DNA of 64,000 nt, from NCBI GenBank assembly GCA_029565395.1, contig JAKQOG010000048.1, positions 206 to 64,205 of the forward strand, given 5' to 3'. Shown here in pieces: positions 1-31,482 of this stretch. The stretch is from Candidatus Hydrogenedentota bacterium. Lineage in GTDB: Bacteria > Hydrogenedentota > Hydrogenedentia > Hydrogenedentales > CAILVY01. Below the pieces are notes generated by a model. It saw nothing but the letters and a program-made list of their open reading frames with translations, did not search any database and had not been told where the DNA came from. Made by a program: the position numbers and the translations under genes. Numbering within the stretch: the stretch's first letter is position 1; every line of letters begins with the position of its first letter.

Positions 1-26
1 AAGACGGCTTTTGTCCAGGCCCGTAA
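1..26 (+). CDS. 3' end of an upstream giant surface-protein paralog (window-truncated)
   Basis: The frame starting at nt 3 reads DGFCPGP followed by TAA at 24-26. This is the same Cys-Pro-Gly tail that ends the giant ORFs at 3684, 7457, 15382, 23844(-) and 28669(-). Confidence 0.45.
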
Positions 27-103
27 GGGGGCCGCCGCATGTATCGGAAATGCAGGGTGCGCCGCGCGCACCGTTTACGCCAAAATGCGCATAATAAAAA
101 ATA

Positions 104-132
104 TTGACGAATCCTTCTGCGGATCGCATAAT
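104..132 (+). promoter_or_regulatory. sigma70-like promoter upstream of giant ORF 1
   Basis: TTGACG at 104-109, a 17-nt spacer, then CATAAT at 127-132. It lies ~115 nt upstream of the ATG at 247 in an AT-rich stretch. Confidence 0.35.
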
Positions 133-246
133 GGGGCATGTGCAGAACAGGATGGGTATCGATGCAGAGCAAGATATTTTTCCTTTTTTTATGACTAAGC
201 AGACGGGAGACAGAATAGCCAGAGTAACCACACTGGGAGAGGTGTC

Positions 247-3200
247 ATGAGTAAAATAGAGGTTAAGCAGAGGATGACGTGGTGGGTTTTGGGATTGGTA
301 ATGTGTTCCGTTATGGCCTGTGCCGCCAATGGGGAAATGGCGGCCGGCGCTTCGAAAACGCCGGTTGAAAATCCCGCCATTTTGGTATATGTGGGCCTAT
401 GCACCGGCGGGCAGGACTATGCCAACGAAGCCCTTGCCAACCTTGGCTATGCCAATGTCACCACGGTCACCACTTTGGCTGATTTTCAAACACAGTTGGC
501 CTTCTCGTGGAATCTGATTATTTATGACGGATACTACTCCTTTCTGAATACCACCATCCTCGATATGCTCAAAACAAAGTATGATTCAGGCGGCCGCATC
601 ATTTTTTCCGATGCGAATGTTCTTGCGCTGAAGGCGCATTCGTTGTTTTCCGCCGCCGGTGTCTCCATTATCAACGAATTCACCGTTCCGGAACCCCTTT
701 ACCCCTGGCAAAACGATCCCCTGTTCATTACCCCCAACGAAGTGCCGCCCATCACGGTCCTGAGCGATTTGTGCAACCGTGACGGCGTGCATCTGGAACC
801 TGTTGCCGGGCTGTCTACCGCACACGCTGGCGCCACCGAAACGGCCGAAACCAACAAGGCCCTGTTAACCGTGGATGCGAAACGCCATTTTATCTTTAAT
901 GGATTCGCTCCACAAACCGTCACGGGCGATCAGGATAGCGACAGCAAGCCTGACATGGTTGAATTATATGAAAATGAAATTCATCACTTGCTTGCGGGCG
1001 GCAACGGCGCGCTGGTCTTTTTTTCAACGTGTAACGGCGGCTTGGACTACTTTTCGGATGCATTGGATATGGCTGGCTTGAGCAACCGCACCGTTGTGTA
1101 TAATCAAGATGATTTTCTTGATCAATTGAATACGGGCAACTGGCGGTTGGTGATTGTGGATGCCTACGACATGAGCATAGACTCCACAGCGCTGGATGCA
1201 TTGGTCCGTCATTACAATAGCGGCGGGAAGACAATCCTGTATACGTGGAATCTGTTGAGTCTTGCTGCACATCCCTTCTTTACTCTCGCCGGCGCCAATC
1301 CCCTGTCCAACTATTCCACCCCGCAACCCATCTATGACTGGGATGTCTCGAATCTTTTCAAACAGCCGTGGACCATTCCTGATCTCACTGCGCTGAGCGA
1401 CCTGTGCCCTATCGATGGCCAGTATCTTCAAGCTACCACGGGCATTGCGCTCGCCGGCAACACCCCAACGTATGACGCCACTAAAGCCACCATTGTCATG
1501 GATGCCCACCGCCGGATATTGCTGAACGGATTCGCTCCCCAGAATGTTACCAGTAACCTTACGGGGTACAACGACATGACGGCCCTGTATGAAAACGAGA
1601 TCAACCTGTTGCTCTGGGGTGGACGCGGCACCCTGGTGTATATCGAGGCATGCGGGGGAAGCCCGGACTATATCTCCCCCGCCCTGGCCAATCTTGGTAT
1701 TACGGACGTTACTAGAGCCTCCGATGCGCTTGATTTCACCCTCCAACTTGCATCGGGCACCTGGGATACGGTCATTTATGAGGCCTACCGCATCGACACC
1801 ACCACGGAAACTCTGGACGCATTGCTGAACTTTTTTGATAAGAACCAGGGAAGTCTCGTCATCTCTCTATTTGACCTGAAAGCATTTGCCAGTCATCCTC
1901 TCTTTTCGGACCGTGCCGGGATCACCGTGGGTAGCGAGTACGGCGATCCACAGCCCATCTATGCCTGGAATCAATCCATCCTGTTTCAGGCGCCCAATGA
2001 GGTCCCTACTCTCAGCGCTTTCTCGAACCCCTGCGCGACGGACGGACAATTTATGGAAGTGACCACCGCCACCGCCCATGCGGGTTATACGGCAGATCCT
2101 TCAGCGAACAACACCGCCATTGCCGTTAACCAGAGCAAGCGGCTGATCGTCAATGGATTTATCCCAGGAATTGTGACAGGAGACGCCGATGGGGACTTAA
2201 AAGACGACATGGTTGAGCTCTACGAAAATGAAATTCTCTATAGCCGGGCAGGAACCAAGGTGGGGACCCTAGTGCTTTTCAACGATTGTTTTTTCGGACA
2301 AAATTATGTGGAACCGGCAGCCGCTAATCTTGGGTTGTCGAGAACGATCATAAGCAACGAAACATGGTTTCGAACCTATCTTGCCGCAGGGGATTGGGGT
2401 ACGGTCATTTATGATTCCTACAGCGCTTTCTTTCCGAATGGCCTTGAACAGGATCTGACGGCATATTACGATCAGGGTGGACGCATCATCCTGTCCGCGT
2501 GGGACCTTACCTCTTATGGAGGATACCCCATTTTGGACCGAGCAGGCATTTCGGTGGGATCCCAGTATAACACCCCTGAGCCTATCTATGCCTGGGACGT
2601 ATCGCCATTTTTCGATACCCCCAACCTAATCCCTAATCTGACCATTTTCAGTGATTTATGCGATGTTGACGGCCAGTATCTGCAACCCGGTACGGCATCC
2701 GCGGTCGCCGGCTTCACCGCTTCCCCTCAGGCAGACACCGCCGCCATTACCATGGACGCCCAATCCCGTTTTATCGTGAACGGTTTCATGCCCCAGAATG
2801 TTACCGGCGATGAAGACGGCGATACCAAGCTGGATATGGTTGAACTGTATGAAAATGAACTTAATGCCGTGCAGATGGCAACAGCAGAACGTTCCTGCCC
2901 CGCGGAATCCTTCTTCTCGCAAATACCGTATGCTCCCCCTGAAGCAATGGGTGCATGGTTTAGCGATGTGGATCTCCCCTATACGGTGTATGAAAACTTT
3001 AATGGCCTTACGGATCCCATCGGACAGATCGTGTGGTGGGGGCTCAATTGTTATTGTGACGCCATACCCGCGACGGACACCTTTTCTGTTGGATTTTACG
3101 AGGACAATGCGGGACTGCCCGGGAACCTGATTTACGAAGAAACCGTGACCCCCATACGGGAAAAGGTTGATGTGATGTATTATGTCTGGTGGCTATATCA

Positions 3201-3684
3201 ATATACCGTCACTTTAGCGGCGCCCCAATCAATCGACTCCGGCTGGCTCAAGATACGCGTTATAAATAGCAGCAAGTGCACGTGGGGATGGATGAGCAGC
3301 GGCCAGGGCGATCATTTCGCCTACCAGGAGGGTAGCGGACCCTTGAATAATCTGGATTTCGGCGTCTGTTTCATTGGCGCCAGTGCAAGCGGTATCCACA
3401 GCGCCGACACCAACAGCGATTATATCATCGGCCTCTCGGAACTTCTCCGCGTTATCCAGTTTTTCAACTCCAATGGATTCCATTGCCAGGCTGGCACCGA
3501 AGACGGTTTCGCGCCGGGTCCCGGCGATACAAGCTGTGCTCCCTATGACAGCGACTATAACCCAACCGATTGGCAGATAAGCCTTTCGGAATTGCTCCGG
3601 GTGATCCAGTTCTTCAATTCCGGCGGATATCATTACTGCCCCGGCGATGGTACGGAAGACGGGTATTGCCCCGGTCAAGGCTGA
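247..3684 (+). CDS. Giant secreted repeat protein 1 (1145 aa): signal peptide, 4 tandem ~210-aa repeats, one WWG/FYEDNAG-type domain, C-terminal dockerin/EF-hand-like Cys module
   Basis: RBS GGGAGAGG lies before the ATG. The N-terminus MSKIEVKQRMTWWVLGLVMCSVMACAANG is signal-like. Four repeats start near aa 54, 264, 470 and 684 (GGxDY...ALANLGY...DMVELYENE). The last ~90 aa are DTNSDYIIGLSELLRVIQFFNS...GTEDGYCPGQG. Confidence 0.85.
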   Translation: MSKIEVKQRMTWWVLGLVMCSVMACAANGEMAAGASKTPVENPAILVYVGLCTGGQDYANEALANLGYANVTTVTTLADFQTQLAFSWNLIIYDGYYSFLNTTILDMLKTKYDSGGRIIFSDANVLALKAHSLFSAAGVSIINEFTVPEPLYPWQNDPLFITPNEVPPITVLSDLCNRDGVHLEPVAGLSTAHAGATETAETNKALLTVDAKRHFIFNGFAPQTVTGDQDSDSKPDMVELYENEIHHLLAGGNGALVFFSTCNGGLDYFSDALDMAGLSNRTVVYNQDDFLDQLNTGNWRLVIVDAYDMSIDSTALDALVRHYNSGGKTILYTWNLLSLAAHPFFTLAGANPLSNYSTPQPIYDWDVSNLFKQPWTIPDLTALSDLCPIDGQYLQATTGIALAGNTPTYDATKATIVMDAHRRILLNGFAPQNVTSNLTGYNDMTALYENEINLLLWGGRGTLVYIEACGGSPDYISPALANLGITDVTRASDALDFTLQLASGTWDTVIYEAYRIDTTTETLDALLNFFDKNQGSLVISLFDLKAFASHPLFSDRAGITVGSEYGDPQPIYAWNQSILFQAPNEVPTLSAFSNPCATDGQFMEVTTATAHAGYTADPSANNTAIAVNQSKRLIVNGFIPGIVTGDADGDLKDDMVELYENEILYSRAGTKVGTLVLFNDCFFGQNYVEPAAANLGLSRTIISNETWFRTYLAAGDWGTVIYDSYSAFFPNGLEQDLTAYYDQGGRIILSAWDLTSYGGYPILDRAGISVGSQYNTPEPIYAWDVSPFFDTPNLIPNLTIFSDLCDVDGQYLQPGTASAVAGFTASPQADTAAITMDAQSRFIVNGFMPQNVTGDEDGDTKLDMVELYENELNAVQMATAERSCPAESFFSQIPYAPPEAMGAWFSDVDLPYTVYENFNGLTDPIGQIVWWGLNCYCDAIPATDTFSVGFYEDNAGLPGNLIYEETVTPIREKVDVMYYVWWLYQYTVTLAAPQSIDSGWLKIRVINSSKCTWGWMSSGQGDHFAYQEGSGPLNNLDFGVCFIGASASGIHSADTNSDYIIGLSELLRVIQFFNSNGFHCQAGTEDGFAPGPGDTSCAPYDSDYNPTDWQISLSELLRVIQFFNSGGYHYCPGDGTEDGYCPGQG

Positions 3685-3710
3685 TCGCAAAAGAAACAGT
3701 ATACACCCGC

Positions 3711-3745
3711 GCGCGGCTAGCAAAAGAGGCTTGCCGCGCTTTTTC
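3711..3745 (+). terminator. Rho-independent terminator after giant ORF 1
   Basis: Stem GCGCGGC (3711-3717), loop, stem GCCGCGC (3733-3739), then TTTTT. Confidence 0.55.
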
Positions 3746-3881: not shown

Positions 3882-6800
3882 ATGCTGTATATAAGACGCA
3901 CGGGACATTTTCCACATCAATCAACGTTAATCGCACGGGTTCTGTTAGGAATAGCTCTTATTCCCATTCTAGGCGGTCAAGCACCCGCACAAATCAACGC
4001 TCTTGCGCTTAAAGATGATGCGCGAACAAAAGTTACCCTGTGCACGGTAACGATCAATTTCGATGATGTATCTGCGCCCACGTTATTCATGAATGCAACG
4101 CATCTTACGGACGCATACAGTCAAATGTATGGAGTAACGTTTTATGGCCCAGACGGGGATAACGGCGGCGCCATTTTAGATAGCAGCACTTGGGCGTCGG
4201 TCACAGGCGAAAGCACCCCGAATTTTCTAGCCTTTGACACCCTGGGAGATCTTTCGGATGGCGGTGTAGCCATAGGGCCAGAAACGATTGAATTCCGAAG
4301 TCCCGTGGATGGTGTCAGCGTAAATGTGGCTACGGGGACGGGAGGCCATGCCACCCTCGAAGCCCGTGACCCGTATGGAACGGTTCTGGACAGTCAAACC
4401 GTATCATTGGGTTTCGCGATGCAAACGGTCACGATTATGTCGCCAGGAATTAAGTCATTAGTAGCGTCCTTTGACGACTCGACATTTCTAATGGATGATC
4501 TGTGCATTTACGGCGATCCTAACGGTGAGTCCTGTGCTGATGATTCGTTCTTTAGTCAAAAACCTATGAGTCCGTGGGAATCATGGAATGGATTTCCAAG
4601 CAATGTTGGGGGGAATAGTCTCTTGTATGAGAATTTCTCCGGATTGACCGAACCAATACAACGTATTCGTTGGTGGGGATTTGGAGTTGCCCCCGGCTTT
4701 TTCAACTGCACGCCCACGGGGAGTTCGTTTGAAATTGGGTTGTATTATGATGACGGGGGCGCGCCCGGAGCTCAATGTTACTCAGAGACCGTGACGGCGG
4801 CAATGTACGAGACGGGCCGGATATTTGCAGGAGTAGATAACTTTACGGAATACAGGTTCGAGGCAGACCTTGCAAATCCGTCCTACTTTTCCAATGGCTG
4901 GATTATGATTAAAGGCCTGGGAGATTTCTCCACATGCGGTTTTTATTGGCTGTTATCGCCAGAGGGCGATAACGTTTCCTCGCTGTCCACGGATGAAGGG
5001 GCCACCTTTAGCCCACAGACGATGAATTTCTCTATTTGCCTGAGCCCCGGCCCTGGCTACCGGCAGGAATGTGGAACGGGTTCTGCCTTTTCACAACGGC
5101 CCTTTGTTCCAAATTCTGTTTCTGAGTTTGGAAATTATTTCTTCAGCAGCGAAGCGCTGGGCTACACTGCCTATGAGAATTTTTCAGGGCTTAGCTGGCC
5201 TGCCAAGCACATTACCTGGTGGGGCATTGACTACTCCACTTCCTATAGTCCTTGTTCACGCACGATGGGTGATTTTACCATTTCCGTATACAACGACAAT
5301 GCCGGCGCTCCGGGTTCACTGGCGCTTGAGGAAACACTCACGCCTGTCCGCATGGATACAGGCAGGCAATGGTTCGACGGGACAAATTATTATCCTGAAT
5401 ACCGCTATGAAGCTGAATTGACCGGGCAGATTGACCTGGCGGATGGGTGGATTTCGATTTTTGGCAGCAATGAAGATGGGACATGCGGTTTTGCCTGGGC
5501 TGTCTCGCCGGTGGGGGACGATCTGATTTACCAAGCAATGAATGGTGAAACTCCCGCCAGTAAGCCAGGTTTTGACTTGAGCATTTGCCTGGACACCTAT
5601 ACGGGACCGCCACAGTATTGCATGGATGGTTCGCAGTTTAATCAAAAGCCCTATGGTCCTCTGGACCCTGGAGTCAACGCATGGTATAGCGGAGACGAGA
5701 CCGGATATATTGTGTATGACAATTTTTCCTCGCACTGGCCAATAAATTCCCTTCAATGGTGGGGAGCGGCCAGCGGACCGGCTTGCACCTCGTTTCAAAT
5801 TACATTTTATGAGGATAATGCCGGGCAACCAGGGATTGTGACATATCAGGAGAATGTGGTGGCGACACAAGAGCCAACGACTCGTTTATTTTTTGGAGGG
5901 CCTGAGTACAGGTTCTTCGCCACGCTTAGTTCTTCGGTAGCATTGGCCAGCGGCTGGATCTCCATCGCGGGGATAAACGGAGCCGGGTGTGGCTTTGGAT
6001 GGATTTGCTCTCCGAATGGGGATGACATTTCATTTAGTCAAACCCCGCCTGGCAGCGGTCCCTTCGTTAACCTCAACGTGGATCTGGCGTTGTGTCTGGG
6101 CGCGGATACGGGACCTGCGGAAACGTGCTCACCGTATGCACTGTTCGGCCAGCCGAGCATGGACCCCACTGCCTTGGGAGTGAACGCTCTCTTCAGCGAC
6201 GAAATATTGACCTATGCCGCCTATGAGAATTTTTCGGGAATCACGGATTCGATTACCGATGTCCGCTGGTGGGGCGTTCATTTCAATTACGCACCTTGTA
6301 CGCGCGTGACAGATACGTACCAAATAACATTTTATGAGGATAATGCAGGGCAACCGGGCGCTGTAGTGGAACAGGCGGTGATTACGCCGGACCGGACATT
6401 GACAGGCCGGATATTCTATTTTTCGGCGGACTATCCGGAATATTTGTGCCATGTGCGGCTAAGTACACCGGTGTCCCTTGCCACGGGCTGGATCTCCATT
6501 GTGGGCGTAGGGGATGCATCGTGTGGATTTGCATGGATGTGTTCAAGCGTGGGCGATTCTTTCTGCCTTCAATACCCCATCGCCGGCGGATCCCCCTTGA
6601 CTGGATACAGTGATCTCAGTCTATGTCTAAGCCATGAAGAAGAATTGTGCCAAGTCGTCCTCGATGGATCACAAGAAGCGCCACCCATTGGCAGCGCTGC
6701 CACTGGTATGGCAACATTTGCACACGTTGGCCCAGATGCAGTGCAGTTGACAGTAGTCCATGATGTGGCAGATCCTACCGCTGCACATATACACAGTGGC

Positions 6801-7457
6801 GTGCCTGGAGTAAATGGTCCGGCCGTCTTTGATCTGGGAATGCCAACCAGCCCCATAGAAGTGACGATGACATTGGCGGAATACACCTTGTTCTCTACTG
6901 ATCATTATGTAAATGTTCATAGTCTCATGTATCCGGCCGGAGAAATCCGAGGCGATATTCTCTGTCTTCCGGCCGAAGGCGAAGGCGCGGAGGAAGGTGA
7001 AGGTGCAGTGGAAGGCGAAGGCGCGGAGGAAGGCGAAGGCGCGGAGGAAGGTGAAGGTGCAGTGGAAGGCGAGGGTGCAGTGGAAGGCGAGGGTGCAGTG
7101 GAAGGCGAAGGCGCGGAGGAAGGCGAAGGCGCGGAGGAAGGCGAAGGTGCAGTGGAAGGCGAAGATGGATTCCTGACGGCGGATCAGGATCAAGACAATG
7201 CGATCAGCCTTTCCGAACTGCTCCGCGTTATCCAGTTTTTCAACTCCAATGGATTCCATTGCCAGGCCGGCACCGAAGATGGCTATGCCCCCGGTCCTGG
7301 CGATACGAGCTGTGCGCCCTACGACAGCGACTATAACCCAATCGATTGGCAGATAAGCCTTTCGGAATTGCTCCGGGTGATCCAGTTCTTCAATTCCGGC
7401 GGATACCACTACTGTCCCGGCGATGGCACGGAAGACGGGTATTGCCCCGGCCTATAA
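3882..7457 (+). CDS. Giant secreted repeat protein 2 (~1191 aa): signal peptide, 4 tandem ~170-aa WWG/FYEDNAG repeats, CHRD domain, EG-repeat linker, C-terminal dockerin/EF-hand-like Cys module
   Basis: The start is moved to the ATG at 3882, which has a strong GGAGGGAG RBS; the ORF track starts at 3837. The N-terminus MLYIRRTGHFPHQSTLIARVLLGIALIPILGG is signal-like. A CHRD-like segment reads LDGSQEAPPIGSAATGMATF...AAHIHSGVPGVNGPAVFDL...VNVHSLMYPAGEIRGDI. The C-terminus closely matches that of ORF 1 and ends ...GTEDGYCPGL. Confidence 0.85.
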   Translation: MLYIRRTGHFPHQSTLIARVLLGIALIPILGGQAPAQINALALKDDARTKVTLCTVTINFDDVSAPTLFMNATHLTDAYSQMYGVTFYGPDGDNGGAILDSSTWASVTGESTPNFLAFDTLGDLSDGGVAIGPETIEFRSPVDGVSVNVATGTGGHATLEARDPYGTVLDSQTVSLGFAMQTVTIMSPGIKSLVASFDDSTFLMDDLCIYGDPNGESCADDSFFSQKPMSPWESWNGFPSNVGGNSLLYENFSGLTEPIQRIRWWGFGVAPGFFNCTPTGSSFEIGLYYDDGGAPGAQCYSETVTAAMYETGRIFAGVDNFTEYRFEADLANPSYFSNGWIMIKGLGDFSTCGFYWLLSPEGDNVSSLSTDEGATFSPQTMNFSICLSPGPGYRQECGTGSAFSQRPFVPNSVSEFGNYFFSSEALGYTAYENFSGLSWPAKHITWWGIDYSTSYSPCSRTMGDFTISVYNDNAGAPGSLALEETLTPVRMDTGRQWFDGTNYYPEYRYEAELTGQIDLADGWISIFGSNEDGTCGFAWAVSPVGDDLIYQAMNGETPASKPGFDLSICLDTYTGPPQYCMDGSQFNQKPYGPLDPGVNAWYSGDETGYIVYDNFSSHWPINSLQWWGAASGPACTSFQITFYEDNAGQPGIVTYQENVVATQEPTTRLFFGGPEYRFFATLSSSVALASGWISIAGINGAGCGFGWICSPNGDDISFSQTPPGSGPFVNLNVDLALCLGADTGPAETCSPYALFGQPSMDPTALGVNALFSDEILTYAAYENFSGITDSITDVRWWGVHFNYAPCTRVTDTYQITFYEDNAGQPGAVVEQAVITPDRTLTGRIFYFSADYPEYLCHVRLSTPVSLATGWISIVGVGDASCGFAWMCSSVGDSFCLQYPIAGGSPLTGYSDLSLCLSHEEELCQVVLDGSQEAPPIGSAATGMATFAHVGPDAVQLTVVHDVADPTAAHIHSGVPGVNGPAVFDLGMPTSPIEVTMTLAEYTLFSTDHYVNVHSLMYPAGEIRGDILCLPAEGEGAEEGEGAVEGEGAEEGEGAEEGEGAVEGEGAVEGEGAVEGEGAEEGEGAEEGEGAVEGEDGFLTADQDQDNAISLSELLRVIQFFNSNGFHCQAGTEDGYAPGPGDTSCAPYDSDYNPIDWQISLSELLRVIQFFNSGGYHYCPGDGTEDGYCPGL
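6975..7165 (+). repeat. Perfect tandem 18/36-bp DNA repeats encoding an (EGEGA[EV])n acidic linker inside giant ORF 2
   Basis: Units gaaggcgaaggcgcggag and gaaggtgaaggtgcagtg are repeated about 10 times. They translate to EGEGAEEGEGAVEGEGA... Confidence 0.9.
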
Positions 7458-7625: not shown

Positions 7626-7654
7626 TTGACATTCCATAGAAGTATCGTTAGAAT
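7626..7654 (+). promoter_or_regulatory. Near-consensus sigma70 promoter for giant ORF 3
   Basis: TTGACA at 7626-7631, a 17-nt spacer, TAGAAT at 7649-7654. It sits ~70 nt upstream of the ATG at 7724. Confidence 0.5.
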
Positions 7655-7723: not shown

Positions 7724-10700
7724 ATGCGCAAGCAGCTCTGTATCGCGGCGATTATCGGAGGGTGGATTGTTTTTTTCGTATATAACCCCAATGCATCCGC
7801 GGGGTCCAATCCGCCTGTGTATGTAAGCCATAACAACGCCTCCGGCAATGAAGATGGTGCAAGTTGGGCCACAGCGTTCACCACGATCCAGCCGGCGTTG
7901 GATAATGCCGCAGCGGCAGGCGGCGGCGAGGTATGGGTGGCCAAGGGAAGCTATGGTGAAATCCGGGACAATACCGGCGCGCTGGGTTCGCTGGTTCTGT
8001 GGAGTGATGTGGGTGTGTTTGGCGGATTCGATGGGACGGAAGCAACTATTGAAGAACGCGATCCGAATACCAACCTCACCATCATTGATGGTTCCGCATC
8101 GCGCTTGGAAGGCCAGGAACTGGCCCCGGCCTATCATGTAGTCCGCGGGGAATACCTGAGCGATGTTGTGTTGGATGGTTTCATTATTGGGGGTGGAATG
8201 AATCCCTATCAGACGGTTGCCGATCCCGGTGGCGGGGGAATCTATCTATCAGGGGCGGATGCGACTGTGGTGCTAGAGCATTTGACGCTGAATTTTAACA
8301 GCGCTAATTTAGGTGGAGCCATTTATTTGAACAATGCTTCTCCAATAATACGCAATTGCAGGATTGTGGGGAATGGCGCGTTTGATGGGGGTGGATTGTA
8401 TCTGGTTAATTCTTCGCCCCGTATAGAAAATGTACTGGCCATGAATAATCTGGCCCCGCCGCTGTTTGATAATTCAGGACTTGGTGGAGATGTATATGCT
8501 GATGCTGAATCGTCGCCCCTTATGGTAAATGTGACCCTGGCAGGATCTATAGCGAAGGAAGGTGCGATCTATAGCGCAATGCGGGACAATACCGGGCCAG
8601 TTCTGGTGAATGCGGCGATAAGTTACACCAGTGATATGGAACATGATGTTATTCATGAGGATGTGGCGGGCGATATCCAGGCTACCTATACCCTCGCCCA
8701 GAAGCAGTTGCCGGGAGAGGGGAACCAATCCGGACGCGAGTTGTTCCGAATAAGCGATTATTCCGTTTTTACGGACGATCCGGTCTACGACACAGCCACC
8801 GGCCATACTACTTTTTTTGATCGATCCAAACATTTCGCGCCGAATTCTTTGGTGGGTACGCTGTTGCGGGTGGATACGTATGGAATTCCTTGGTATTACG
8901 TCTACACCTTTGTCATTTTGGAAAACACGGAAACAAGCATCACCGTGTTTAGGGATACGGATATGGCCATCACGGCGGGGACGCATTACGCCCTGCTCGA
9001 TGGCAGCATGGAGAAGATTTCGCCCACGGTGGACACGGGCGCGTCCAACGGAACTCCTTCACACGATTATCTCGGTCAAGCGCGGGGGTATGATGGCGAC
9101 GGTTTGGGGCATGTTACCGGGGATGGGTCGGACTATGACTTGGGCTTCTTAGAATACACCGGACAGGTGTGGGGCGTGGCGCCAATTGCGGATCAAAAAC
9201 TCGAAACGGCCGTGTTGCACGTGTTGCCCAGCGTGGAACCGCCCATTCATACCGATGAGTTTCTGACAGTGACGGAATTAGACGCTTCCTCCCAAAACAT
9301 CACCAATATTTGGGGAATCGAGTACGGCGTAAATCTGGAAACATTGAATCTTAGCAATAATGCCATTTCGCGGCTGGGTGCACTTGCGGGAGCGCACAAA
9401 TTACATTGGCTCGATTTGCACCATAATCAAATCACGGAAATTAGTGCGCTGCTAGCGAACACCGGACTGGGTGGCGATGATTTCCTCGACCTGCGTGGCA
9501 ATCCGCTAACGGAAGAGACTGTGTGCGCGGATCTTCCTGTGCTCCAGGCACGGTTTAACGATCCGCGTAATCTCCTCTATGACCAGTGGTGTGGGCCACA
9601 GGCGCGGCTGACTATGACGGTAATAGGTATTGGCACGGTTAGCCCGGAACCTGGCATTACGGTATATCATCCCGCCGAATATGCACACCTCTCCGCCACT
9701 CCGATTGCGGGAAGTGGATATGCCTTTGATCACTGGGAAGGCAGTGTTTCCTCGGACAGCCCGGCGGTTGATCTGATTATGTATTCGGATAAGAATATTG
9801 CGGCGGTGTTTGTAAATCAAGGCGTGGAAACGCATACCCTCACCCTGCTAAAAGTGGGAGACGGCCAGGGTGATCTATCGCCGGGCGAAGGCGTATTCAC
9901 TTATGTCGAAGGACACTCCGTGGATATTAATGCCGTACCTGTTTCCGGCGATGTCTTTGGCGGATGGAGCGGCGATTTTGTCAGCATGAACACCAGCGGA
10001 ACGATCGTAATGGATGCCGACAAGGTAATCACCGCAACGTTTTTGCACACCTATGTAACACTCGATATAGCGATCACGGGCAATGGCTCCACCAATCCCG
10101 CCCCCGGCACGTATTATTATGCGCCTGGCGCTCAAGCCACGCTTGAGGCCTTGGTTACCGACCCAGTGTGGCATTTTGATCATTGGGAAGGCGGCGTGGA
10201 CACCCCCACAAACCTGCACACCACGATCACCCTCACCCAATCGGCCTCTATAACGGCCGTGTTTGTTCAGTATGAACGCGTGCTGGAAATCCGCGCTTAC
10301 GGTAATGGAACCACTATCCCCGCGCCCGGCCTGCATGGATATAATCCCGGGGATGCCGTGCAAATCCAAGCCATTCCTGGCGGAGGCGCTGCTTTCTCCG
10401 GATGGATGGGGGATCTGCAAGGTCAGGAGACTCCCGCCTCTGTTACCATGGAGGCAGACCGGTTAGTACTCGCCTTCTTTACTAATACCGACACCTCGTC
10501 TTTGTTCCATTCTGTTGATACTAATCATGACTGGCATATTTCCTACTCAGAAATGTCCAGGATTTTCCAGTTCTTCAATATGGGAGGAGATTACCATTGT
10601 GAAGCCGGTACTGAAGATGGATATTTTCCCGGTATTGGCAGCCATGATTGTGCCCCGCACGATGCCGATTATGATCCTCAAGACTGGCGTATTTCCTTGT

Positions 10701-22178: not shown

Positions 22179-22256
22179 TCTTCGGAAGTTGAAAGGACAT
22201 CGTAGCTACTTCCGGTAGGACGATGTATCCAGATCATGGCCTTGTGTTTCGGGATC

Positions 22257-22300
22257 CGGGGTCCGGGATCCGGGGTCCGGACCCCGGATCCCGGACCCCG
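22257..22300. terminator. Perfect 44-nt GC-rich palindrome, a bidirectional terminator between convergent genes
   Basis: ccgggg tccgggatccggggtccgg | accccggatcccggaccccgg forms a 22-bp perfect stem centred at 22278/22279. It is built from two copies of cgggatccggggtc and their reverse complement. It sits between the stop at 22178 (+) and the stop at 22303 (-). Confidence 0.6.
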
Positions 22301-23843: not shown

Positions 23844-26800
23844 TCAAAGCCCCGGGCAGAATCCGTCTTCGGTGCCTTCGCCGGGGCAGTAGTGATACCC
23901 GCCGGAATTGAAGAACTGGATCACGCGCAGCAATTCGGACAAGCTGATGTGCCAGTCTTGGGCATTGTAATCGCTATCATATGGCGCACAACTTGTATCG
24001 CCCGGACCGGGCGCGTAGCCGTCTTCCGTGCCCGCTTCACAATGGAATCCGTCTGAATTGAAGAATTGGATTACACGGAGCAGTTCCGAAAGGTTGATAA
24101 AACCATCCTGGTCTTGATCGGGCGTCAGATATCCGTCTTCGCCTTCTCCTTCCTCGCCACCTTCTTCTCCCCCTTCGCCTTCAGCAATACCCTCTTCTCC
24201 TCCTTCACCCTCTGGGGCGCCTTCGCCTTCTTCCACGCCTTCGGCCTGACCCTCCTCCGGCGAACCTTCGGAGGGCACGCCTTCAGTTTCTCCTTCTTCC
24301 ACGGCCCCTTCTCCTTCCTCTCCGCCTGGAACAGGGTATGGCGCACTGAAGACGGATGTGTTGCCGTCACTGGCCGTAGCCGTGGCGGTGATGTTCATTC
24401 CGGCATAGGGTGTTATGTCCACATCTAAATGGAAATTTCCGGAGCCATCCGACGAAGCCGCGCCGAGAAAAATGCGGCCTTCATCCTCATCATCCGCGAA
24501 TGCTTCAATCGTGGCCAATGCAATGCTTGTGCCGTCGATGGAACCCAATGCAGTAATGACCGGGGCCGGAACATTGTTATTGGCGCCTGGGAGCAATTCT
24601 ATGCCCAAGCCGCCATTTGAATAGATGGAGTTGCCCGAAATACGAACATACAAAACAGTTTCCTCGAGATACACGCCTGCGGCATAATTAAAAGCAATCG
24701 TATTGCCTTCTCCGGGGGTGGTTCCACCGATTGTATTGTCCTCGGCATGCCAACCCGCTTGCACACCCCAACTCTGCGGATTCCCGGAGGGCGCGCCGGT
24801 TCCCAGGGCATTCGGTCCAATCCAATTGCCCTGTACCTTATTCCCTGTTACATTCGCTCCCATTAGCCGGACACCACAACTCCCGTTGCCGGAGATTAGG
24901 TTCCGCCACCAGGAAAGTCCGCCGCCGATGAGATTGTTGGTGGCTTCTTCAACAATCGACACTCCTGCAAGCTCGTTGGCGATCGCCATCATGCCACTGG
25001 CATCCGTGCCGATATAATTGCCTTGCACGGCGCAATCATGCCCATCCACTCCGGAGATCCGAATGCCGTAAAAGCACCCGGAGATAATATTGCGGTAGCC
25101 TATGTTTTCCCCGCCGATCTGGGTTTGCGGCGCCATTACGTCAATCCCCGTGGCATACTGCACGGCCAAGGCGGACGCTCCATCTTTGTCCAAGCCAATA
25201 TAATTCCCGTAAATCATGTTGCCCATGCCGGCGGCGCCATCGATCAGAATTTCACCTCCGCCGGCATTGCCTGCAATGATATTGCCGCTTGTCTCCGATT
25301 CCCCGCCGATCACGTTACCCGGAGAACCATTAATCCAGACGCCATAATACCCATTGCCCATCGCCGCCATGCCCGTGGCGTCCACCCCAATGTAGTTTCC
25401 TAAAATTTCCGTGGCGGTGGCGGAGGAACCAACATGGACCCCCGCTGAGCTGTTGCCGGAAATAATATTGCCACTGAGTCCGTCTCCCCCGCCGATGATA
25501 GTGCCTGAACCATCGGCCACATATATGCCCACGGCGTTTGGCATGCTGGAGGTTCCATCGGTGCCGAGCGTGCATTCCGCGACCGTGTTATTGTTGCCGC
25601 TGATGTTCACACCCGCATAGGGGAAATTCACAATCCCAAGGCCACGCACTTCATTTCCGTCCGAGAGCAGCACAAGACCGTTGTCCGAACCGGAGAGGCC
25701 CGACCCATCTAGAACTATTTGGCCGGCCCCATTAATAACCGTAGGGGCTGAGCTGTCATTCAGCGCCGGGAGCGCCGAACTGAGCGTTATCGTGACGGTT
25801 TTCGACAGATCGAAGACGATTGTGTTTTCGCCGGTCATGGCATTAGCCTGCTCTATGGCCGCTCGAAGCGTATGCGGGCCGCTGTCGCCGGAGTCCGTCA
25901 CGGTGATTGTGGCATCAAAAAAGATGGCCGCGGGCGCGCTGAAGGCGGACGTGCAACCGGTGGTGGTGTCCGTGGCCAGGGCGGTGACATTCAGTCCGTT
26001 ATAGGGCAATAAATCCACATCCACATGAAAATCGCCGGTGTCTTCGGCTATGGCCGTCCCGATAAACAAGCGCCCTTCGTCTGCTTCATCAACGAAGACA
26101 TCCACCAGCGCATAGGGGGGCGCGGTTCCATCCACCGAACCGAGCGTGGTGATAACCGGCGCGGCGATATCGCCGTTGGTTCCGGGATCAAGCACAATGC
26201 CCTCTTCCGTATTGTCATGTATGGAATTGCGGAGAATGCTGATCCCGGTGCTTCCATCGCGAACCCATACGCCTTTGCTTCCATTGAACGCAATGATGTT
26301 GGCGGCGCCGTCTTCCGCGCCGCCGATAACATTCTGACTTGCGTGGTCGGTCAAATACACGCCTATGGAACCATTGGGCAACGGATTACTTCCCGAAACA
26401 TCGCACCCGATTTTGTTCCCCTTTACCACATTGTTGGCCGTATCCGTGGTGAAGATGATAATTCCAAAATTACTGTTGCCGGAAATCAGATTTCCCGCAC
26501 CTGCGGCAGTGCCGCCAATCATGCACATTTGGGCGCCTGATTCCACCGCCACCCCTGACCGGTTTGGAACCGATAGCATGCCGCTGATGTCCGTGCCGAT
26601 ATAATTCCCTTGAAGGAAATTGCTGGAGGAAACAAGATCAATGCCTTCTTCCGAATTGCCTGATATCAGATTCCCATGCCCCGCCACCCCGTCGCCAATG
26701 TGATTGCCGCTGGACCCTGAGTCCACCACGATCCCGTTTTGCCCGTTGGCTAGCGAGGCTGTCCCTTCCCGGTTTGTGCCGATGCGGTTTCCGAAAACGC

Positions 26801-28493
26801 TGTTACCGCTGCTGTTGCGGATTAAGATGCCTTCCACGGCATTCCCCGAAATCAGGTTGCCCTCCGTCTCGAACGCCCCTCCAAGGGTATTGCTGCCGGA
26901 TTCTTCCACCATAATTCCATGGCTCGAATTCAAAATCGCGGAGACTCCCGTCATATCCGTCCCGATGGAATTCCCCTGAATCACCGCGCTCATGTCTCCC
27001 CCCGCTCCATACAGATAAATACCTTGATTGGTATTTCCTGAAATAAGATTCCCGTCGTTTTCTCCCGTGCCGCCGATGATAGAGGCTTGCGCATTGTCAA
27101 GGTAAATACCGGCTCCGCCGTTTGGAATAGCAGTGGTCCCGTCAGGATTGGTTCCGATGAGACACCCCCGCACAGTATTGCCCGTCGAGGCGATGTTCTC
27201 TATCCAAACGCCGTTGCCCGTGTTGCCGGAGATGATGTTGCGCAACACTGTCCCATCCACCGCCACCTCCAGAACATTGTTGGAGCCGTTATCGATGTGC
27301 ATGCCTGCGCCGCCATTGGGCACATCCGTGGTTCCATCGGCACTGAGACCGATAATGTTGTTGGTGAAAGTATTCGTCTGAGCGCCCCCGTTGATCAGCA
27401 CGCCGTCTTCAGCATTGCCGGAGATAACGTTGCCTTCCACGCTGGCGCCGCTTGACCCGCTCAGCACCAGGCCGCTCATCGCATTTTCCAGGTCGCCCGT
27501 GGCGTCGGCGCAGTTCCCGATGAGATTGCCGGAAATGGCGGCCCCATCGATGCCACCGAGGATAATCCCATGGCCGAGGTTGCCCACAATAATGTTGTCA
27601 CTGATGGAACAAGATCCTTCTTCTACCGAAACTCCATGGCTGCCATTGCCAAGCGGGCTGCTGCCATTCGCGGTTAATCCAATGTAATTGTTCTGAATGG
27701 TTATATTGGTGCTGGCGGCGCCGGATACGCTTATCCCTTCCATTGTATTGCCGGAAATCACGTTCCCCGCCGCGCTGCTGGTTCCGCCTATCCGGACACT
27801 GGGCGCGTCCGCCAGTTGAACACCTGGGCCACCGTTCGGAACTGCGCTCCCTCCTGTAGCGGTGGCGCCGATATAATTACCGTAGATATTGATGGCGCCC
27901 GTACTGGAGGTGACGTATACCCCAGCGTTCGTATTGCCGCTTATGATATTCCGCTCACTTGAAGTACTCCCCCCTAACGTGGCCCGCCCGCCCGTGATGG
28001 AAACACCCCAGCCATTGGCTATCACAAAACGGCCATCATAGCCGATCAGGCAACCGGTCACCACGTTGTATGATCCGCCGATCACAATACCCGACTTCTG
28101 GAATCCGCCGATAATAAGCCCGTTAATAACATTCGTATTGGAACTTAGGATCAAGCCATGACTGTTGCCGGCGGAGGCGCCATTCAAGGTAATTATCCCT
28201 CCTCCATTTATCGTGGTCCCGCCCGAGGAGTCGTCCAACGCCGGAAGTTCGGAAGTGAGATTGATAATGCGATCTCCCTCTGGAAGATTAAACACGATGG
28301 TATCCGCGCCTGCAAGCAAATTGGCAGATCCAATGCATTTGCGCAGGGTTGGGTTGATAACCCCGTCTCCGGAGTCGGTCACGGTAAATGTGGCCGCCTG
28401 CGCCCAACTCCCCACAAACAACAACAGCATTACACCCGCAACAAATTGTTTTCCCCATCCAAGCCCTTTTCGCCCATTAGCCGCTTTGTTCAT
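23844..28493 (-). CDS. Giant secreted protein 4 (~1549 aa): two tandem NosD-like parallel beta-helix (PbH1) arrays, EG linker, C-terminal dockerin/EF-hand-like Cys module
   Basis: The start is moved to the ATG at 28493 (MNKAANGRKGLGWGKQFVAGVMLLLFVGSWAQAA signal peptide, AAAGGA RBS); the ORF track starts at 28622. There are dozens of GxxISGNTxxGI/V repeats. Each half ends with the related segments DGTAPPYALVDVFVDEADEGRLFIG and DGTSIALATIEAFADDEDEGRIFLG. The C-terminus ends GTEDGFCPGL. Confidence 0.85.
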   Translation of the reverse strand: MNKAANGRKGLGWGKQFVAGVMLLLFVGSWAQAATFTVTDSGDGVINPTLRKCIGSANLLAGADTIVFNLPEGDRIINLTSELPALDDSSGGTTINGGGIITLNGASAGNSHGLILSSNTNVINGLIIGGFQKSGIVIGGSYNVVTGCLIGYDGRFVIANGWGVSITGGRATLGGSTSSERNIISGNTNAGVYVTSSTGAINIYGNYIGATATGGSAVPNGGPGVQLADAPSVRIGGTSSAAGNVISGNTMEGISVSGAASTNITIQNNYIGLTANGSSPLGNGSHGVSVEEGSCSISDNIIVGNLGHGIILGGIDGAAISGNLIGNCADATGDLENAMSGLVLSGSSGASVEGNVISGNAEDGVLINGGAQTNTFTNNIIGLSADGTTDVPNGGAGMHIDNGSNNVLEVAVDGTVLRNIISGNTGNGVWIENIASTGNTVRGCLIGTNPDGTTAIPNGGAGIYLDNAQASIIGGTGENDGNLISGNTNQGIYLYGAGGDMSAVIQGNSIGTDMTGVSAILNSSHGIMVEESGSNTLGGAFETEGNLISGNAVEGILIRNSSGNSVFGNRIGTNREGTASLANGQNGIVVDSGSSGNHIGDGVAGHGNLISGNSEEGIDLVSSSNFLQGNYIGTDISGMLSVPNRSGVAVESGAQMCMIGGTAAGAGNLISGNSNFGIIIFTTDTANNVVKGNKIGCDVSGSNPLPNGSIGVYLTDHASQNVIGGAEDGAANIIAFNGSKGVWVRDGSTGISILRNSIHDNTEEGIVLDPGTNGDIAAPVITTLGSVDGTAPPYALVDVFVDEADEGRLFIGTAIAEDTGDFHVDVDLLPYNGLNVTALATDTTTGCTSAFSAPAAIFFDATITVTDSGDSGPHTLRAAIEQANAMTGENTIVFDLSKTVTITLSSALPALNDSSAPTVINGAGQIVLDGSGLSGSDNGLVLLSDGNEVRGLGIVNFPYAGVNISGNNNTVAECTLGTDGTSSMPNAVGIYVADGSGTIIGGGDGLSGNIISGNSSAGVHVGSSATATEILGNYIGVDATGMAAMGNGYYGVWINGSPGNVIGGESETSGNIIAGNAGGGEILIDGAAGMGNMIYGNYIGLDKDGASALAVQYATGIDVMAPQTQIGGENIGYRNIISGCFYGIRISGVDGHDCAVQGNYIGTDASGMMAIANELAGVSIVEEATNNLIGGGLSWWRNLISGNGSCGVRLMGANVTGNKVQGNWIGPNALGTGAPSGNPQSWGVQAGWHAEDNTIGGTTPGEGNTIAFNYAAGVYLEETVLYVRISGNSIYSNGGLGIELLPGANNNVPAPVITALGSIDGTSIALATIEAFADDEDEGRIFLGAASSDGSGNFHLDVDITPYAGMNITATATASDGNTSVFSAPYPVPGGEEGEGAVEEGETEGVPSEGSPEEGQAEGVEEGEGAPEGEGGEEGIAEGEGGEEGGEEGEGEDGYLTPDQDQDGFINLSELLRVIQFFNSDGFHCEAGTEDGYAPGPGDTSCAPYDSDYNAQDWHISLSELLRVIQFFNSGGYHYCPGEGTEDGFCPGL

Positions 28494-28668
28494 GAAATTG
28501 ATCCTTTCGTTCCCACGCATTAACCCTTGGGATACTCCTCTGCGATGTGATTTTTCTTCCCTGCCCGCCAGATAAACCGCCCTTCCGGCGGACAGGCAGT
28601 TATTGAACTCATAATACTCCATCTTTTCCCCAAAGCGAAATATTTTCTTGCGGCAGAAGAGAGTGTTT

Positions 28669-31341
28669 TTAGGAGCCCGGACAGAACTCGTCTTCCGTTC
28701 CTTCTCCTGGACAATAATGATACCCGCCGGAATTGAAGAACTGGATTACGCGCAGCAATTCGGACAAGCTGATGTGCCAGTCTTGAGCATTGTAATCGCT
28801 ATCATATGGCGCACAACTGGTATCGCCCGGACCGGGGGCATACCCGTCTTCCGTGCCCGCTTCACAATGGAATCCGTCTGAATTGAAGAATTGGATTACA
28901 CGGAGCAGTTCAGAAAGACTGATAAGGCCGTCGCCGTTGGAATCCGCGGAGTGAATGCCACCGTAGACTTCGCCTTCGCTTCCGCCTTCGGCGGAACCTT
29001 CCTCCGGTGAACCTTCGGAGGTCATGCCTTCGGGCATGCCTTCAACCTGACCTTCGGTTTCTCCTTCCACCACCACCCCTTCACCTTCCTCCAGCGATCC
29101 CTCCGAAAGCATGCCTTCGGACTCGCCTTCCACCACACCTTCTTCACCACCCTCACCTTCCTCTTGGCCTTCACTTCCGCCTTCGGCGGAGCCTTCGATC
29201 TGACCTTCAGCTTCTCCCTCTTCTGTGCCTTCTTCAACCCCTTCGCCCTCAAGCTGCCCCTCAATTGCACCCTCTAAAGCTCCTTCGGCAAAACCTTCAC
29301 CTTCAGGTTGCCCTTCGACAACTCCCTCGCCATCAGGCGCTCCCTCTATGATTCCCTCAGGTTGCCCTTCCACTATGCCTTCTATATCACCCTCAAGAAG
29401 ACCTTCTTCGCCTTCCTGACTCATAACAGGCGCCATGCAAAGGCTCATGTCGAAATCAGGAATCTCCTTGTGCCCTCCGTTGACCGGCATATACATGGTT
29501 CCATCGCCAATGGGAGAACCAATCCAATGGAATCGGCAGGAAACATCGATAACACCGAATATTGAAATCCATCCCTCTGTTATAGACAACGGCGGCTCAA
29601 GGACGGCTTCATACCGTATCACGGGAAAGCTGGAAAAAAACTGGCCTGTTTCCATGCGCATCGGCTCTATCTGATAGGCCTGCAGGATCTCTCCGGGCGC
29701 ACCGCTGTCATTTTCATAAAAATCGATGCGGAACGTGTCAGGATCCCGGTCACAAGGCACCGCTTGCATTAGAAATTCATCATACTGAGTGTTAATGCCC
29801 CACCACCGGATTCTTCCAATGGGCGCTGTTAAGCCGGAAAAGGACTCATGGGGCCGATGATAATCATCCCCATTACTCGGAATTTCAAATGCAAAGCGGG
29901 GACTGGCCGGAGGCTGGGAAAAAACAGCGTCGTCTGAGCATTCGTGGTTGTCATTCGGGGCAATCGTCAGAACGGCCTCCCGAGTAGCAAGCGTAGTGCA
30001 GGCATTGGATACGGTGCAGCGGTAGCGGCCTGCGTCGCTTGGGAACACTTGTGCGAGGGAGAGCGCCGGGCTTGTTTCCGCGGATAGAATGGAAAATCCC
30101 ATCCCTCGATCCACTTCCCATAGGTACTGTGCAGGGATATCAGGATCGAGGGCAACGTCAAACTCGACCAGGTCGCCGATAACGGCCTCTTTATCCGCGG
30201 GTTCTGACGCTAGCGTGAAAGGATAGGCGACAGACAGGGTCACAGGACCGGAAAATGTGGTGAAACAACCATTGCCCGCGTAGGTTCGGATCTGGAGCCC
30301 GTCGTGTGTCTCCGGCTGCACGTTCGTGAACGTATAGGTGCGGTTATCCCCGCTATCAATAGTATCCCAAAGTTCGGTAACGGGGTTATAGACTTGCCAA
30401 AAGACCGCTCCGTTCGTCACGTCATATTCGACTGTAAAGGTGACATCTTCTCCGGCGCATGTACTTTCATCGATTAAGGGGATAATCACCTGCGGCGCCA
30501 CCTGAACACCAAAAAAGACTATATCGCTGGTATCGCTCCCGTATGCATTGTGTACAATCGCCCGGTAGTAACCGGAATCGCTTGCCTTGACTGGATCCAA
30601 CACCAGCGGCGTTCCGGACTGACCCGTCACATCATGCCAGCTTGTGGGATCGCCCGGATCTTCAGAATGCTCCCAATACACCGATAAGGGCGCCGCACCC
30701 GCAATGCCCAACGGTACTTCCAGCCGCGCGCCATCGCACACATCCACCACCGTTATTTCAGGTTGCACCGTGATATGCGGGGCGCCAATCGTCTGCGGAT
30801 CGGGCTGCAATGGGGTATAGCCGGTATCATCGGCTACATTATAGGACAGCACGGTGGTTTCATGCCTGATGGTGCAGTTGAAATAATCGAAAGCCAACTG
30901 GTCGGAAACGGACGGATCGATGACATCCCACCGGAACGTGGCAAGGTGATAGTTGCCAGCGGGAAACGTGTGGTATGCCCCCCCCTGATGGAGAATCAAC
31001 ATGGCGGTGTCATTTCCGCCTAAATCCAACTGCACCAGATCATTATAATTTCCAAAGCCGCTTATCGCATAGTAGGCATCCATGGCCTCAAGATAGTGAT
31101 ACGGCGCTGGATTTAGCGCAGTTTCATCCGCCTGCACGGTAATGACACTGGTTCCCACACTCCACCCTGACGCACTGACTCTCGCCCAAAGCTCCGCACG
31201 GTACACACCCTCCTCCATCCAGACATTCCGGAGGGAGAAGGTGACCCGGCTTTCCGCGCCGGCAGGAAGGACGGGTAGAAGACTTAACAAAAAAATGATG
31301 CAAATGATACAGAAATAGTGTTTGCACTGTTTCGCAACCAT
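28669..31341 (-). CDS. Giant secreted protein 5 (~890 aa): Ig-like domains, one WWG/FYENDSG-type domain, long EG-rich linker, C-terminal dockerin/EF-hand-like Cys module
   Basis: The start is chosen at the ATG at 31341, which has a GGAGGG RBS 7 nt upstream; the alternative ATG at 31356 has no RBS. The signal peptide is MVAKQCKHYFCIICIIFLLSLLPVLPAGA. The C-terminal ~90 aa are nearly identical to ORF 4 and end GTEDEFCPGS. Confidence 0.85.
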   Translation of the reverse strand: MVAKQCKHYFCIICIIFLLSLLPVLPAGAESRVTFSLRNVWMEEGVYRAELWARVSASGWSVGTSVITVQADETALNPAPYHYLEAMDAYYAISGFGNYNDLVQLDLGGNDTAMLILHQGGAYHTFPAGNYHLATFRWDVIDPSVSDQLAFDYFNCTIRHETTVLSYNVADDTGYTPLQPDPQTIGAPHITVQPEITVVDVCDGARLEVPLGIAGAAPLSVYWEHSEDPGDPTSWHDVTGQSGTPLVLDPVKASDSGYYRAIVHNAYGSDTSDIVFFGVQVAPQVIIPLIDESTCAGEDVTFTVEYDVTNGAVFWQVYNPVTELWDTIDSGDNRTYTFTNVQPETHDGLQIRTYAGNGCFTTFSGPVTLSVAYPFTLASEPADKEAVIGDLVEFDVALDPDIPAQYLWEVDRGMGFSILSAETSPALSLAQVFPSDAGRYRCTVSNACTTLATREAVLTIAPNDNHECSDDAVFSQPPASPRFAFEIPSNGDDYHRPHESFSGLTAPIGRIRWWGINTQYDEFLMQAVPCDRDPDTFRIDFYENDSGAPGEILQAYQIEPMRMETGQFFSSFPVIRYEAVLEPPLSITEGWISIFGVIDVSCRFHWIGSPIGDGTMYMPVNGGHKEIPDFDMSLCMAPVMSQEGEEGLLEGDIEGIVEGQPEGIIEGAPDGEGVVEGQPEGEGFAEGALEGAIEGQLEGEGVEEGTEEGEAEGQIEGSAEGGSEGQEEGEGGEEGVVEGESEGMLSEGSLEEGEGVVVEGETEGQVEGMPEGMTSEGSPEEGSAEGGSEGEVYGGIHSADSNGDGLISLSELLRVIQFFNSDGFHCEAGTEDGYAPGPGDTSCAPYDSDYNAQDWHISLSELLRVIQFFNSGGYHYCPGEGTEDEFCPGS

Positions 31342-31482
31342 GACCAAACCCTCCATGAGTACCTGTAAATGATATTACTGCGAATTTATATTGAAATCAA
31401 GGGCTTTTTCAGAGAGAAATTGAATGTGCCCTGTGTAGTGGAGTAGTTTGGATGCCTTGACAACAATAGAAGGAGCGGAGCC

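Follow-up and report, generated by a model that had tools for sequence, protein, structure and literature searches.

The window, that is the whole stretch of 64,000 nucleotides (nt) analysed here, belongs to contig JAKQOG010000048.1 of a Candidatus Hydrogenedentota bacterium (assembly GCA_029565395.1) and carries five large genes, here named A to E, whose products all end in the same module of about 93 residues. A reading made earlier from the letters of this stretch, hereafter the original prediction, had described these genes, together with the 3' stub of a sixth at the start of the window, as one locus of six paralogous giant surface proteins in which unrelated passengers share one C-terminal module. 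All five were confirmed as intact open reading frames (ORFs; Table 1); with 895-2552 amino acids (aa) they are large rather than giant. Pairwise BLASTP comparison of their modules gave 67-88% identity with E-values of 1e-39 to 1e-51, and the shared ends are therefore not the result of chance. The stub shows seven residues, and its tail GFCPGP is among the commonest tails of the family, which is consistent with a module and is not proof of one. The idea of a single locus had to be given up: between two clusters (stub, A, B and C; D and E) lie, at 15.5-23.7 kb, five housekeeping genes with no relation to them, which encode a GFO/IDH oxidoreductase, an Hsp70-like protein, FapA, DoxX and RtcB, and the module occurs genome-wide and phylum-wide. 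In the following we describe the shared end, which points to a dockerin-type domain of an undescribed docking system.

The N-termini of A to E contain a basic stretch, a hydrophobic stretch and an Ala-X-Ala-like small-residue site, and were read by eye as predicted Sec signal peptides, as in the original prediction. The passengers were also of the types that it had named (repeats, WWG domains with CHRD, leucine-rich repeats (LRR) with InlB repeats, beta-helices and immunoglobulin (Ig)-like domains). They are diverse, but not entirely unrelated, since a WWG domain is common to A, B and E. The repeats of A, four copies of ~207 aa, share 42% identity, and no match to the passenger of A was obtained in Pfam or NCBIfam. 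In C a unit of ~1100 aa is duplicated internally with 46.5% identity between the units, each of which contains in order a beta-helix-like region, LRR, InlB B-repeats, a module and a beta-rich domain of ~140 aa; the two units are followed by linkers rich in Glu and Gly (EG linkers) and two more modules. The module is thus terminal in all five proteins as claimed, but two of the four copies in C are internal (aa ~928-1022 and 2039-2130). Protein D comprises the signal peptide, two parallel beta-helix arrays (Pfam Beta_helix 97 bits, NosD 91 bits), an EG linker and the module, and protein E the signal peptide, Ig-like domains, the WWG domain, an EG-rich linker of ~150 aa and the module. The EG-rich spacers of the original prediction were found in B, C, D and E and not in A, and its end motif GTEDG[YF]CPG holds in general, but E ends in GTEDEFCPGS. 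Protein C is identical to NCBI HPO16463.1, which is annotated as 'leucine-rich repeat domain-containing protein', and was found too on a contig of JGI metagenome 3300010355. HPO16465.1 (PLI09_23715, partial), which falls into one 90%-identity cluster with A as its close relative, is annotated as 'hypothetical protein'.

Conservation of the module was determined from an alignment of 428 unique modules. Its ~93 residues form two repeats of ~46 residues, each built from an EF-hand-type loop, an exiting helix of the sequence SELLRxIQF[FY]N and a short hairpin, TEDG[YF]xPG, with a conserved Cys pair. The consensus of repeat 1 is H-[ST]-A-D-x-[ND]-x-[DN]-x-x-[IV]-S-L-S-E-L-L-R-V-I-Q-F-[FY]-N-S-G-G-[YF]-H-C-x-x-G-T-E-D-G-[YF]-A-P-G-x-G-D-x-x-C. 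Repeat 2 is like repeat 1 except for the loop, D-Y-N-P-Q-D-W-x-I-x-L-S-E, and the end, C-P-x(1-3)-T-E-D-G-[FY]-C-P-G. Loop 1 is a canonical EF-hand loop of 12 residues, D-x-[DN]-x-[DN]-x-x-[IV]-x-x-x-E, with Glu at position 12 and a conservation of 89% (D), 83% ([ND]), 87% ([DN]), 92% (I/V) and 94% (E). In loop 2, which has one residue more, a near-invariant Trp takes the place of the Gly of the EF-hand. The acidic residues of the loops were 86-100% conserved, with 94% and 99% for the Glu at position 12, and the R, Q and N on both helices 94-99%. The four Cys were conserved at 97, 98, 84 and 84%. Since such conserved Cys imply two disulfides, the module is predicted to reside outside the cytoplasm.

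A structural model of the module of B was calculated with AlphaFold2 from an alignment of 43 sequences. The model, with a predicted local distance difference test score (pLDDT) of 95.4 and a predicted template modelling score (pTM) of 0.84, consists of two loop-helix-hairpin units, with helices at residues 15-25 and 65-76 and no helix at 1-14 or 43-64. Because no helix enters either loop in the model, the module resembles the 'F-hand' of dockerins. The best fold matches of the model in Foldseek were likewise dockerins, with E-values of 0.4-6 and target-normalised template modelling (TM) scores of 0.46-0.57, which is below the usual significance. When the module was aligned with the canonical dockerins of the lineage by hhalign, 23 columns were matched with a probability of 74% and an E-value of 2.8e-5; these correspond to loop 1 and the start of the helix, and the whole domain does not align. 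We concluded that the repeat unit of the module is related or analogous to that of dockerins, and that the module has an architecture of its own. No match to the module was obtained in NCBIfam, a sequence search of the PDB gave chance matches only (E >= 0.3), and neither Pfam, NCBIfam nor the literature searched yielded a description of the module. The system is in this sense undescribed, as had been suspected, but it is a variant of the dockerin/EF-hand kind. A preprint on 'dockerin-type giant proteins' of Omnitrophota (10.1101/2023.11.21.568195) was considered and found to concern different proteins.

Further copies of the module were abundant. When 1.84 billion cluster representatives were scanned with HMMER without filtering, 3,061 module proteins (clusters at 50% identity) were found at E<=1e-3 and 1,495 at E<=1e-30, and the species genomes of GTDB contained at least 520 stretches with at least 513 confirmed copies. 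The named homologs were nearly all assigned to Hydrogenedentes/Hydrogenedentota, and two were labelled Kiritimatiellae. In one related metagenome-assembled genome (MAG), CAYYRW (binchicken_co20_17), at least 43 module ORFs were present in the 29 loci kept. Orthologs of B in two MAGs (loci L001 and L003) are intact and share 67-68% aa identity with it, with a ratio of nonsynonymous to synonymous substitution rates (dN/dS) of ~0.08 at saturated dS. With regard to pseudogenes in relatives, a point raised in the original prediction, these are genuine genes subject to purifying selection. Three GTDB MAGs (CAYYRW, CAYXPO and CAZLII; loci L001-L077), titled 'uncultured Nitrospirales', carry dozens of modules. 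Their label is probably wrong, since they carry orthologs of gene B at the identity given above; the MAGs look like Hydrogenedentota.

The position of the module was determined in 112 representative proteins. In 97 of these (~87%) it stands at the very end, the stop codon following 1-4 residues after CPG; in 8/112 it is N-terminal, right after the signal peptide, and in another 8/112 it is only internal. Two or more copies were present in 16/112 proteins, and P0121 and P0122 consist entirely of two modules behind a signal peptide. Because N-terminal, internal, tandem and module-only arrangements exist, we concluded that the module is most likely a binding domain and that a cleaved sorting signal is unlikely. 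More than 50% E+G was found in the 50 residues upstream of the module in 56/89 module proteins of the sampled loci. In a cargo census, Pfam was run on 58 module members and 66 families were found, among them InlB B-repeats (8 members), Beta_helix (7), bacterial surface Ig-like domains (6), LRR, CHRD and Ig_3 (4 each) and FGE-sulfatase (3). Further cargo domains were PKD, cadherin-like, FG-GAP, HYR and proprotein-convertase P-domains and a few peptidases (M14, M4), and no glycoside hydrolase was present among the 25 listed of the 66 families. The cargo is mainly adhesin-like, not carbohydrate-active.

Cohesins, the receptors of dockerins, were found in relatives of the bacterium. In P0149 and P0161 (~255 aa) the signal peptide is followed by a single Pfam Cohesin domain, which a short EG linker joins to the module. 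A cohesin gene cluster was conserved on the contigs of these two proteins and on further contigs that were detected by a cohesin profile in the protein database and in metagenomes. The cluster contains 1-2 small proteins in which a signal peptide is combined with a canonical Dockerin_1 domain (31-36 bits, cut-off 22.9), one cohesin with a long low-complexity linker, a C-terminal transmembrane helix and a basic tail, and 1-2 short cohesins with the same type of C-terminal transmembrane anchor. At nine or more distinct loci (L078, L079, L083/L084, L088/L089, L091, L101, L102, L103, L105) the anchor of a cohesin is replaced by the module. Because these loci span a GC content of 37-66%, the fusion is old and conserved. 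In P0311 and P0313 a canonical dockerin occupies the position of the module on the cohesin. One cluster in a Candidatus Hydrogenedentes MAG has three cohesin ORFs, the third of which is followed by an EG linker in which the contig ends, and the module is not visible there. The identity of the cluster proteins as cohesins is firm: their Pfam scores were 38-47 bits at a cut-off of 24.1, and the AlphaFold2 model of P0149 matched solved cohesins in Foldseek with an E-value of 1e-13 and TM scores of 0.81-0.86. Membrane anchor, canonical dockerin and module are interchangeable at the C-terminus of one cohesin family. Such a swap is what is expected if the module is an attachment device of a cohesin-dockerin network.

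We lean, by a modest degree, towards the explanation that the module is a lineage-specific, two-repeat, calcium-binding docking handle of the dockerin/EF-hand kind with a putative partner. The N-terminal signal peptides would direct the module proteins into Sec export. Once outside the cytoplasm, the module would form its two disulfides and bind Ca2+, and it would then dock non-covalently on a common receptor, either a cohesin or a component of the envelope or matrix. The acidic (EG)n linker may keep the cargo off the anchor point. Displayed in this way would be adhesin-like cargo with beta-helices, LRR, Ig, InlB B-repeats, CHRD, cadherin and PKD domains, and some peptidases and FGE-sulfatase-like enzymes. 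The module would serve as the general attachment handle of the extracytoplasmic proteome of Hydrogenedentota, with dozens of uses per genome, and the window would be an unusually dense cluster of module-tagged genes. The cohesin gene cluster of the related genomes offers the most concrete candidate receptor. That the receptor is a cohesin is a tentative proposal, and we regard it as possible rather than probable. Somewhat more doubtful again is the complete picture, a non-cellulolytic phylum-wide assembly in which a disulfide-stapled dockerin variant of EF-hand type would sit on the membrane-anchored cohesins of the conserved cluster, with the cohesin-module protein as an adaptor by which the scaffold is extended, and at least 40 large adhesins and enzymes would be displayed per cell. 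The original prediction had proposed a family for surface display or docking; a docking-type folded domain agrees with the EF-hand loops, the dockerins as best fold matches and the linkers, but surface display we still only infer.

Several observations weigh against a dockerin-type docking handle. Calcium binding, disulfides and expression of the module are predictions made from sequence. Pfam Dockerin_1 (PF00404, cut-off 22.9 bits) gave no match in A, B, D and E, and the C-terminal 526 aa of C reached 17.3 bits, below the threshold; a precomputed PF00404 match was present in one homolog only, P0041. A single module scored 16-19 bits against the EF-hand models PF00036 and PF13499 at cut-offs of 25-26, and the threshold was passed by protein C only, with its four modules summed. 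The organism is probably diderm, since the window contains RND pump, TonB and ExbB genes and AcrAB-TolC has been reported for the phylum (PMC10866078), and the module proteins would accordingly face an outer membrane. Cohesin-like partners, which the original prediction had envisaged, were detected neither in the ORFs of the window nor in 77 module-rich loci (~1 Mb) with phmmer and hmmsearch. The canonical dockerins of the cohesin cluster are the obvious ligands of its cohesins and may be the true ones. In the AlphaFold2 monomer of P0149 no confident docking of module and cohesin was seen (pTM 0.60, linker pLDDT <50).

When compared with type I dockerins (PF00404), the module is likewise a small domain of two tandem segments, each a calcium loop plus helix, with internal two-fold symmetry. 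Like them it is usually found at the extreme C-terminus behind a low-complexity linker, sometimes internal, N-terminal or double, it is attached to many different cargo proteins per genome, and true cohesins exist in the lineage, here fused to the module. It differs in a repeat unit of ~46 instead of ~22 residues and in a spacing of the loop-helix units of ~50 instead of ~33 residues, and each repeat adds the Cys-stapled TEDG[YF]xPG hairpin. At loop position 12 it has the Glu of EF-hands in place of Asp, its loop 2, a variant of 13 residues, contains an invariant Trp, and it stays below the Pfam threshold. With EF-hands it shares the canonical 12-residue loop 1, from which loop 2 departs, and it lacks the entering helix before either loop. 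From cellulosomes the system is set apart by cargo that is adhesin-like, not composed of carbohydrate-active enzymes. Cohesin and dockerin modules are reportedly widespread outside cellulolytic bacteria. A likeness is seen to such non-cellulosomal systems as that of Archaeoglobus fulgidus, whose cohesin (PDB 2xdh) was among the top matches of the Hydrogenedentota-type cohesin model: there is no sign of a cellulosome, and small single-cohesin proteins occur. What differs here is a second, divergent dockerin-like family with dozens of copies per genome, which shares its gene clusters with canonical dockerins.

A different explanation is that the module has no protein partner, and binds a polymer of the envelope or matrix (lipopolysaccharide, capsule, exopolysaccharide or S-layer glycan) or bridges modules via Ca2+. 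We consider such a tether of cargo to the cell surface or to the biofilm matrix quite possible but less likely than not, though more likely than the explanations that follow. It would suit the disproportion of 34 cohesin clusters to 3,061 module clusters and the lack of a cohesin near most module genes, but the cohesin count is a lower bound, because the search was limited by the word index. Acidic linkers and calcium loops are present, the bivalent proteins made up of modules could cross-link, and the phylum has been proposed to live in biofilms (PMC10866078). However, the best fold matches are protein-binding dockerins, both helices carry conserved polar residues as do the binding faces of dockerins, and the fusion to cohesin within cohesin/dockerin clusters suggests a protein-protein network.

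It is improbable that the module acts as a domain for C-terminal sorting or secretion, which machinery of the lineage would recognise in order to move the protein across the outer membrane and then cleave the module off or attach it covalently. Like the C-terminal domain of the type IX secretion system, PEP-CTERM, LPXTG and MYXO-CTERM, it is a conserved C-terminal element on unrelated secreted proteins of one lineage, and its frequency at the very end, with the stop codon so close behind, would agree with such a role. The terminal copy also usually keeps the second Cys pair, which is missing from many non-terminal copies, and with N-terminal Sec signals the proteins would need a second step to pass the outer membrane. 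Against this stand the N-terminal, internal and tandem copies and the proteins of a signal peptide plus two modules. Moreover, the fold is helical with calcium loops and not a beta-sandwich, a transmembrane helix and a basic tail are lacking, no sorting model of NCBIfam or Pfam was matched, and no secretion genes adjoin the module genes in the window. RTX proteins and other type I secretion substrates differ in that A to E have signal-peptide-like N-termini and no GGxGxD nonapeptide repeats. An artefact of low complexity, chimeric assembly or pseudogene debris, which the many partial genes at contig ends might suggest, is effectively refuted by five long intact ORFs in the window, the same protein sequences in independent NCBI, JGI and ENA assemblies, the pLDDT of 95, the low dN/dS of the B orthologs and thousands of diverged copies that keep the same invariant residues.

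The tag marks a large share of the extracytoplasmic proteome in Hydrogenedentota. This phylum is widespread and uncultured, what is known of it is almost entirely predicted metabolism, and these proteins are now listed at NCBI as 'hypothetical protein'. With a family model for the tag, annotators could list the likely surface and adhesion repertoire at once. Should the partner be a cohesin, a large cohesin-dockerin network would exist for adhesins and not for polysaccharide breakdown, and the structurally distinct dockerin might be useful as an orthogonal pair in protein-assembly engineering. Many module genes in the databases are partial and lie at contig ends; the repeat hence breaks assemblies, which explains why these genomes assemble poorly.

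Table 1. Positions of the genes, modules and other features. Positions refer to the window unless a locus or protein is named.
Feature	Position	Strand	Basis or remark
3' stub (DGFCPGP*) of upstream gene, ends like module	3-26	+	translation
Sigma-70-like match TTGACG-17-CATAAT, upstream of A	104-132	+	10/12, consensus match only
Gene A, 1145 aa	247-3684	+	intact ORF
A, ~207-aa repeats, 4 copies	~382-2865	+	
A, WWG domain	~2890-3372	+	
A, module	3391-3681	+	no EG linker before module
Gene B	3882-7457	+	intact ORF; longest ORF from GTG 3837
B, WWG domains, 4 copies	~4521-6632	+	
B, CHRD	~6651-6959	+	Pfam 61 bits
B, EG-rich linker	6975-7164	+	18-nt x 10.6 tandem repeat
B, module	7170-7454	+	sequence used for AlphaFold2
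TTGACA-17-TAGAAT, exact, upstream of C	7626-7654	+	11/12, consensus match only
Gene C, 2552 aa	7724-15382	+	intact ORF
C, module C1, internal	10505-10789	+	without terminal Cys pair
C, 'X' domain, unnamed, ~140 aa	10781-11209	+	directly 3' of module C1
C, module C2, internal	13838-14113	+	
C, second 'X' domain	14111-14539	+	directly 3' of module C2
C, module C3	14738-15013	+	
C, module C4, terminal	15095-15379	+	
Gene D	23844-28493	-	intact ORF; longest ORF to 28622
D, module	23847-24131	-	
Gene E	28669-31341	-	intact ORF; longest ORF to 31356
E, module	28672-28956	-	
E, WWG domain	~29434-29946	-	
Cohesin/dockerin gene clusters	L078 1141-6670; L079 1574-6662; L083 5955-10651		Hydrogenedentota-like contigs, not in window
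Small canonical-dockerin proteins	L078 1141-1623, 4272-4799; L079 2671-3156; L083 5955-6473		
Cohesin paralogs of one cluster, examples	L078 1796-2920, 2941-3612, 3622-4275, 5903-6670		
Bearers of shared C-terminal tail	L079 5303-5878; L077 323-aa and 449-aa ORFs; P0304, P0309, P0317		

The beta-rich domain of ~130-140 aa, here called 'X', adjoins the module in C, L083, L077, P0146, P0207 and P0256. In this it is like the X module of the type II X-module-dockerin dyad, but the 'X' domain of C follows the module instead of preceding it, and the domain occurs also without the module, in three membrane-anchored proteins (449, 323 and 487 aa) on the minus strand of L077. Two of these three also carry an EF-hand pair. 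No match to the 'X' domain was obtained in Pfam. The possibility that it is a hidden cohesin was rejected on sequence grounds (hhalign probability 0.1%, together with the missing Pfam match). It could be a structural companion, like the type II X module, or an alternative receptor.

Next to one of the cohesin clusters, at L083 3125-5899, a protein of 924 aa was found that contains many canonical EF-hand pairs (EF-hand_7, 194 bits) with EG linkers between them and ends in an 'X' domain and a module, the latter ~10 residues from the C-terminus. A surface system of wider scope that depends on calcium is hinted at by this protein. A C-terminal tail motif is common to the small canonical-dockerin proteins of the clusters, ...ERY[LT]xxLTP[NH]APP.... 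Another tail is common to cohesins and 'X'-domain proteins: G-C(-x-C), ~15-25 residues, G-D-[LMF], a hydrophobic helix and basic residues, as in GCGCNCSK...KRSLGDLFLAGLSLFIL...GRRNP. No match was obtained in NCBIfam for the cohesin proteins P0304, P0309, P0317 and L079 5303-5878 or for their tails. The shared tail has the look of a C-terminal signal for sorting or anchoring, of a Cys type that is still unnamed.

The WWG domain of A, B and E comprises ~170 aa, is usually located just upstream of linker and module and starts with Cys and an FSQxP motif; against DUF7901 it scored below the threshold (14-18 bits, cut-off 24). The ~207-aa repeats of A are an uncharacterised domain family. Between the DoxX-like gene and rtcB lies an intergenic 7-nt tandem repeat, CGGGATC x 6.7, at 22250-22295. 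The strong promoters of the original prediction were not borne out as a shared feature: good matches were seen upstream of A and C and of none of the other three genes, and the overall number of promoter-consensus matches was not above the shuffled expectation.

The nucleotide identity of the modules was highest between neighbours, with 86% for A-B and 87% for D-E, compared with 57-78% for the other pairs. This likeness fits local duplication or gene conversion and agrees with the exchange between paralogs that had been thought possible. Over ~180 nt the modules of D and E hardly differ, while their flanks have diverged, which suggests recent gene conversion between these neighbours.

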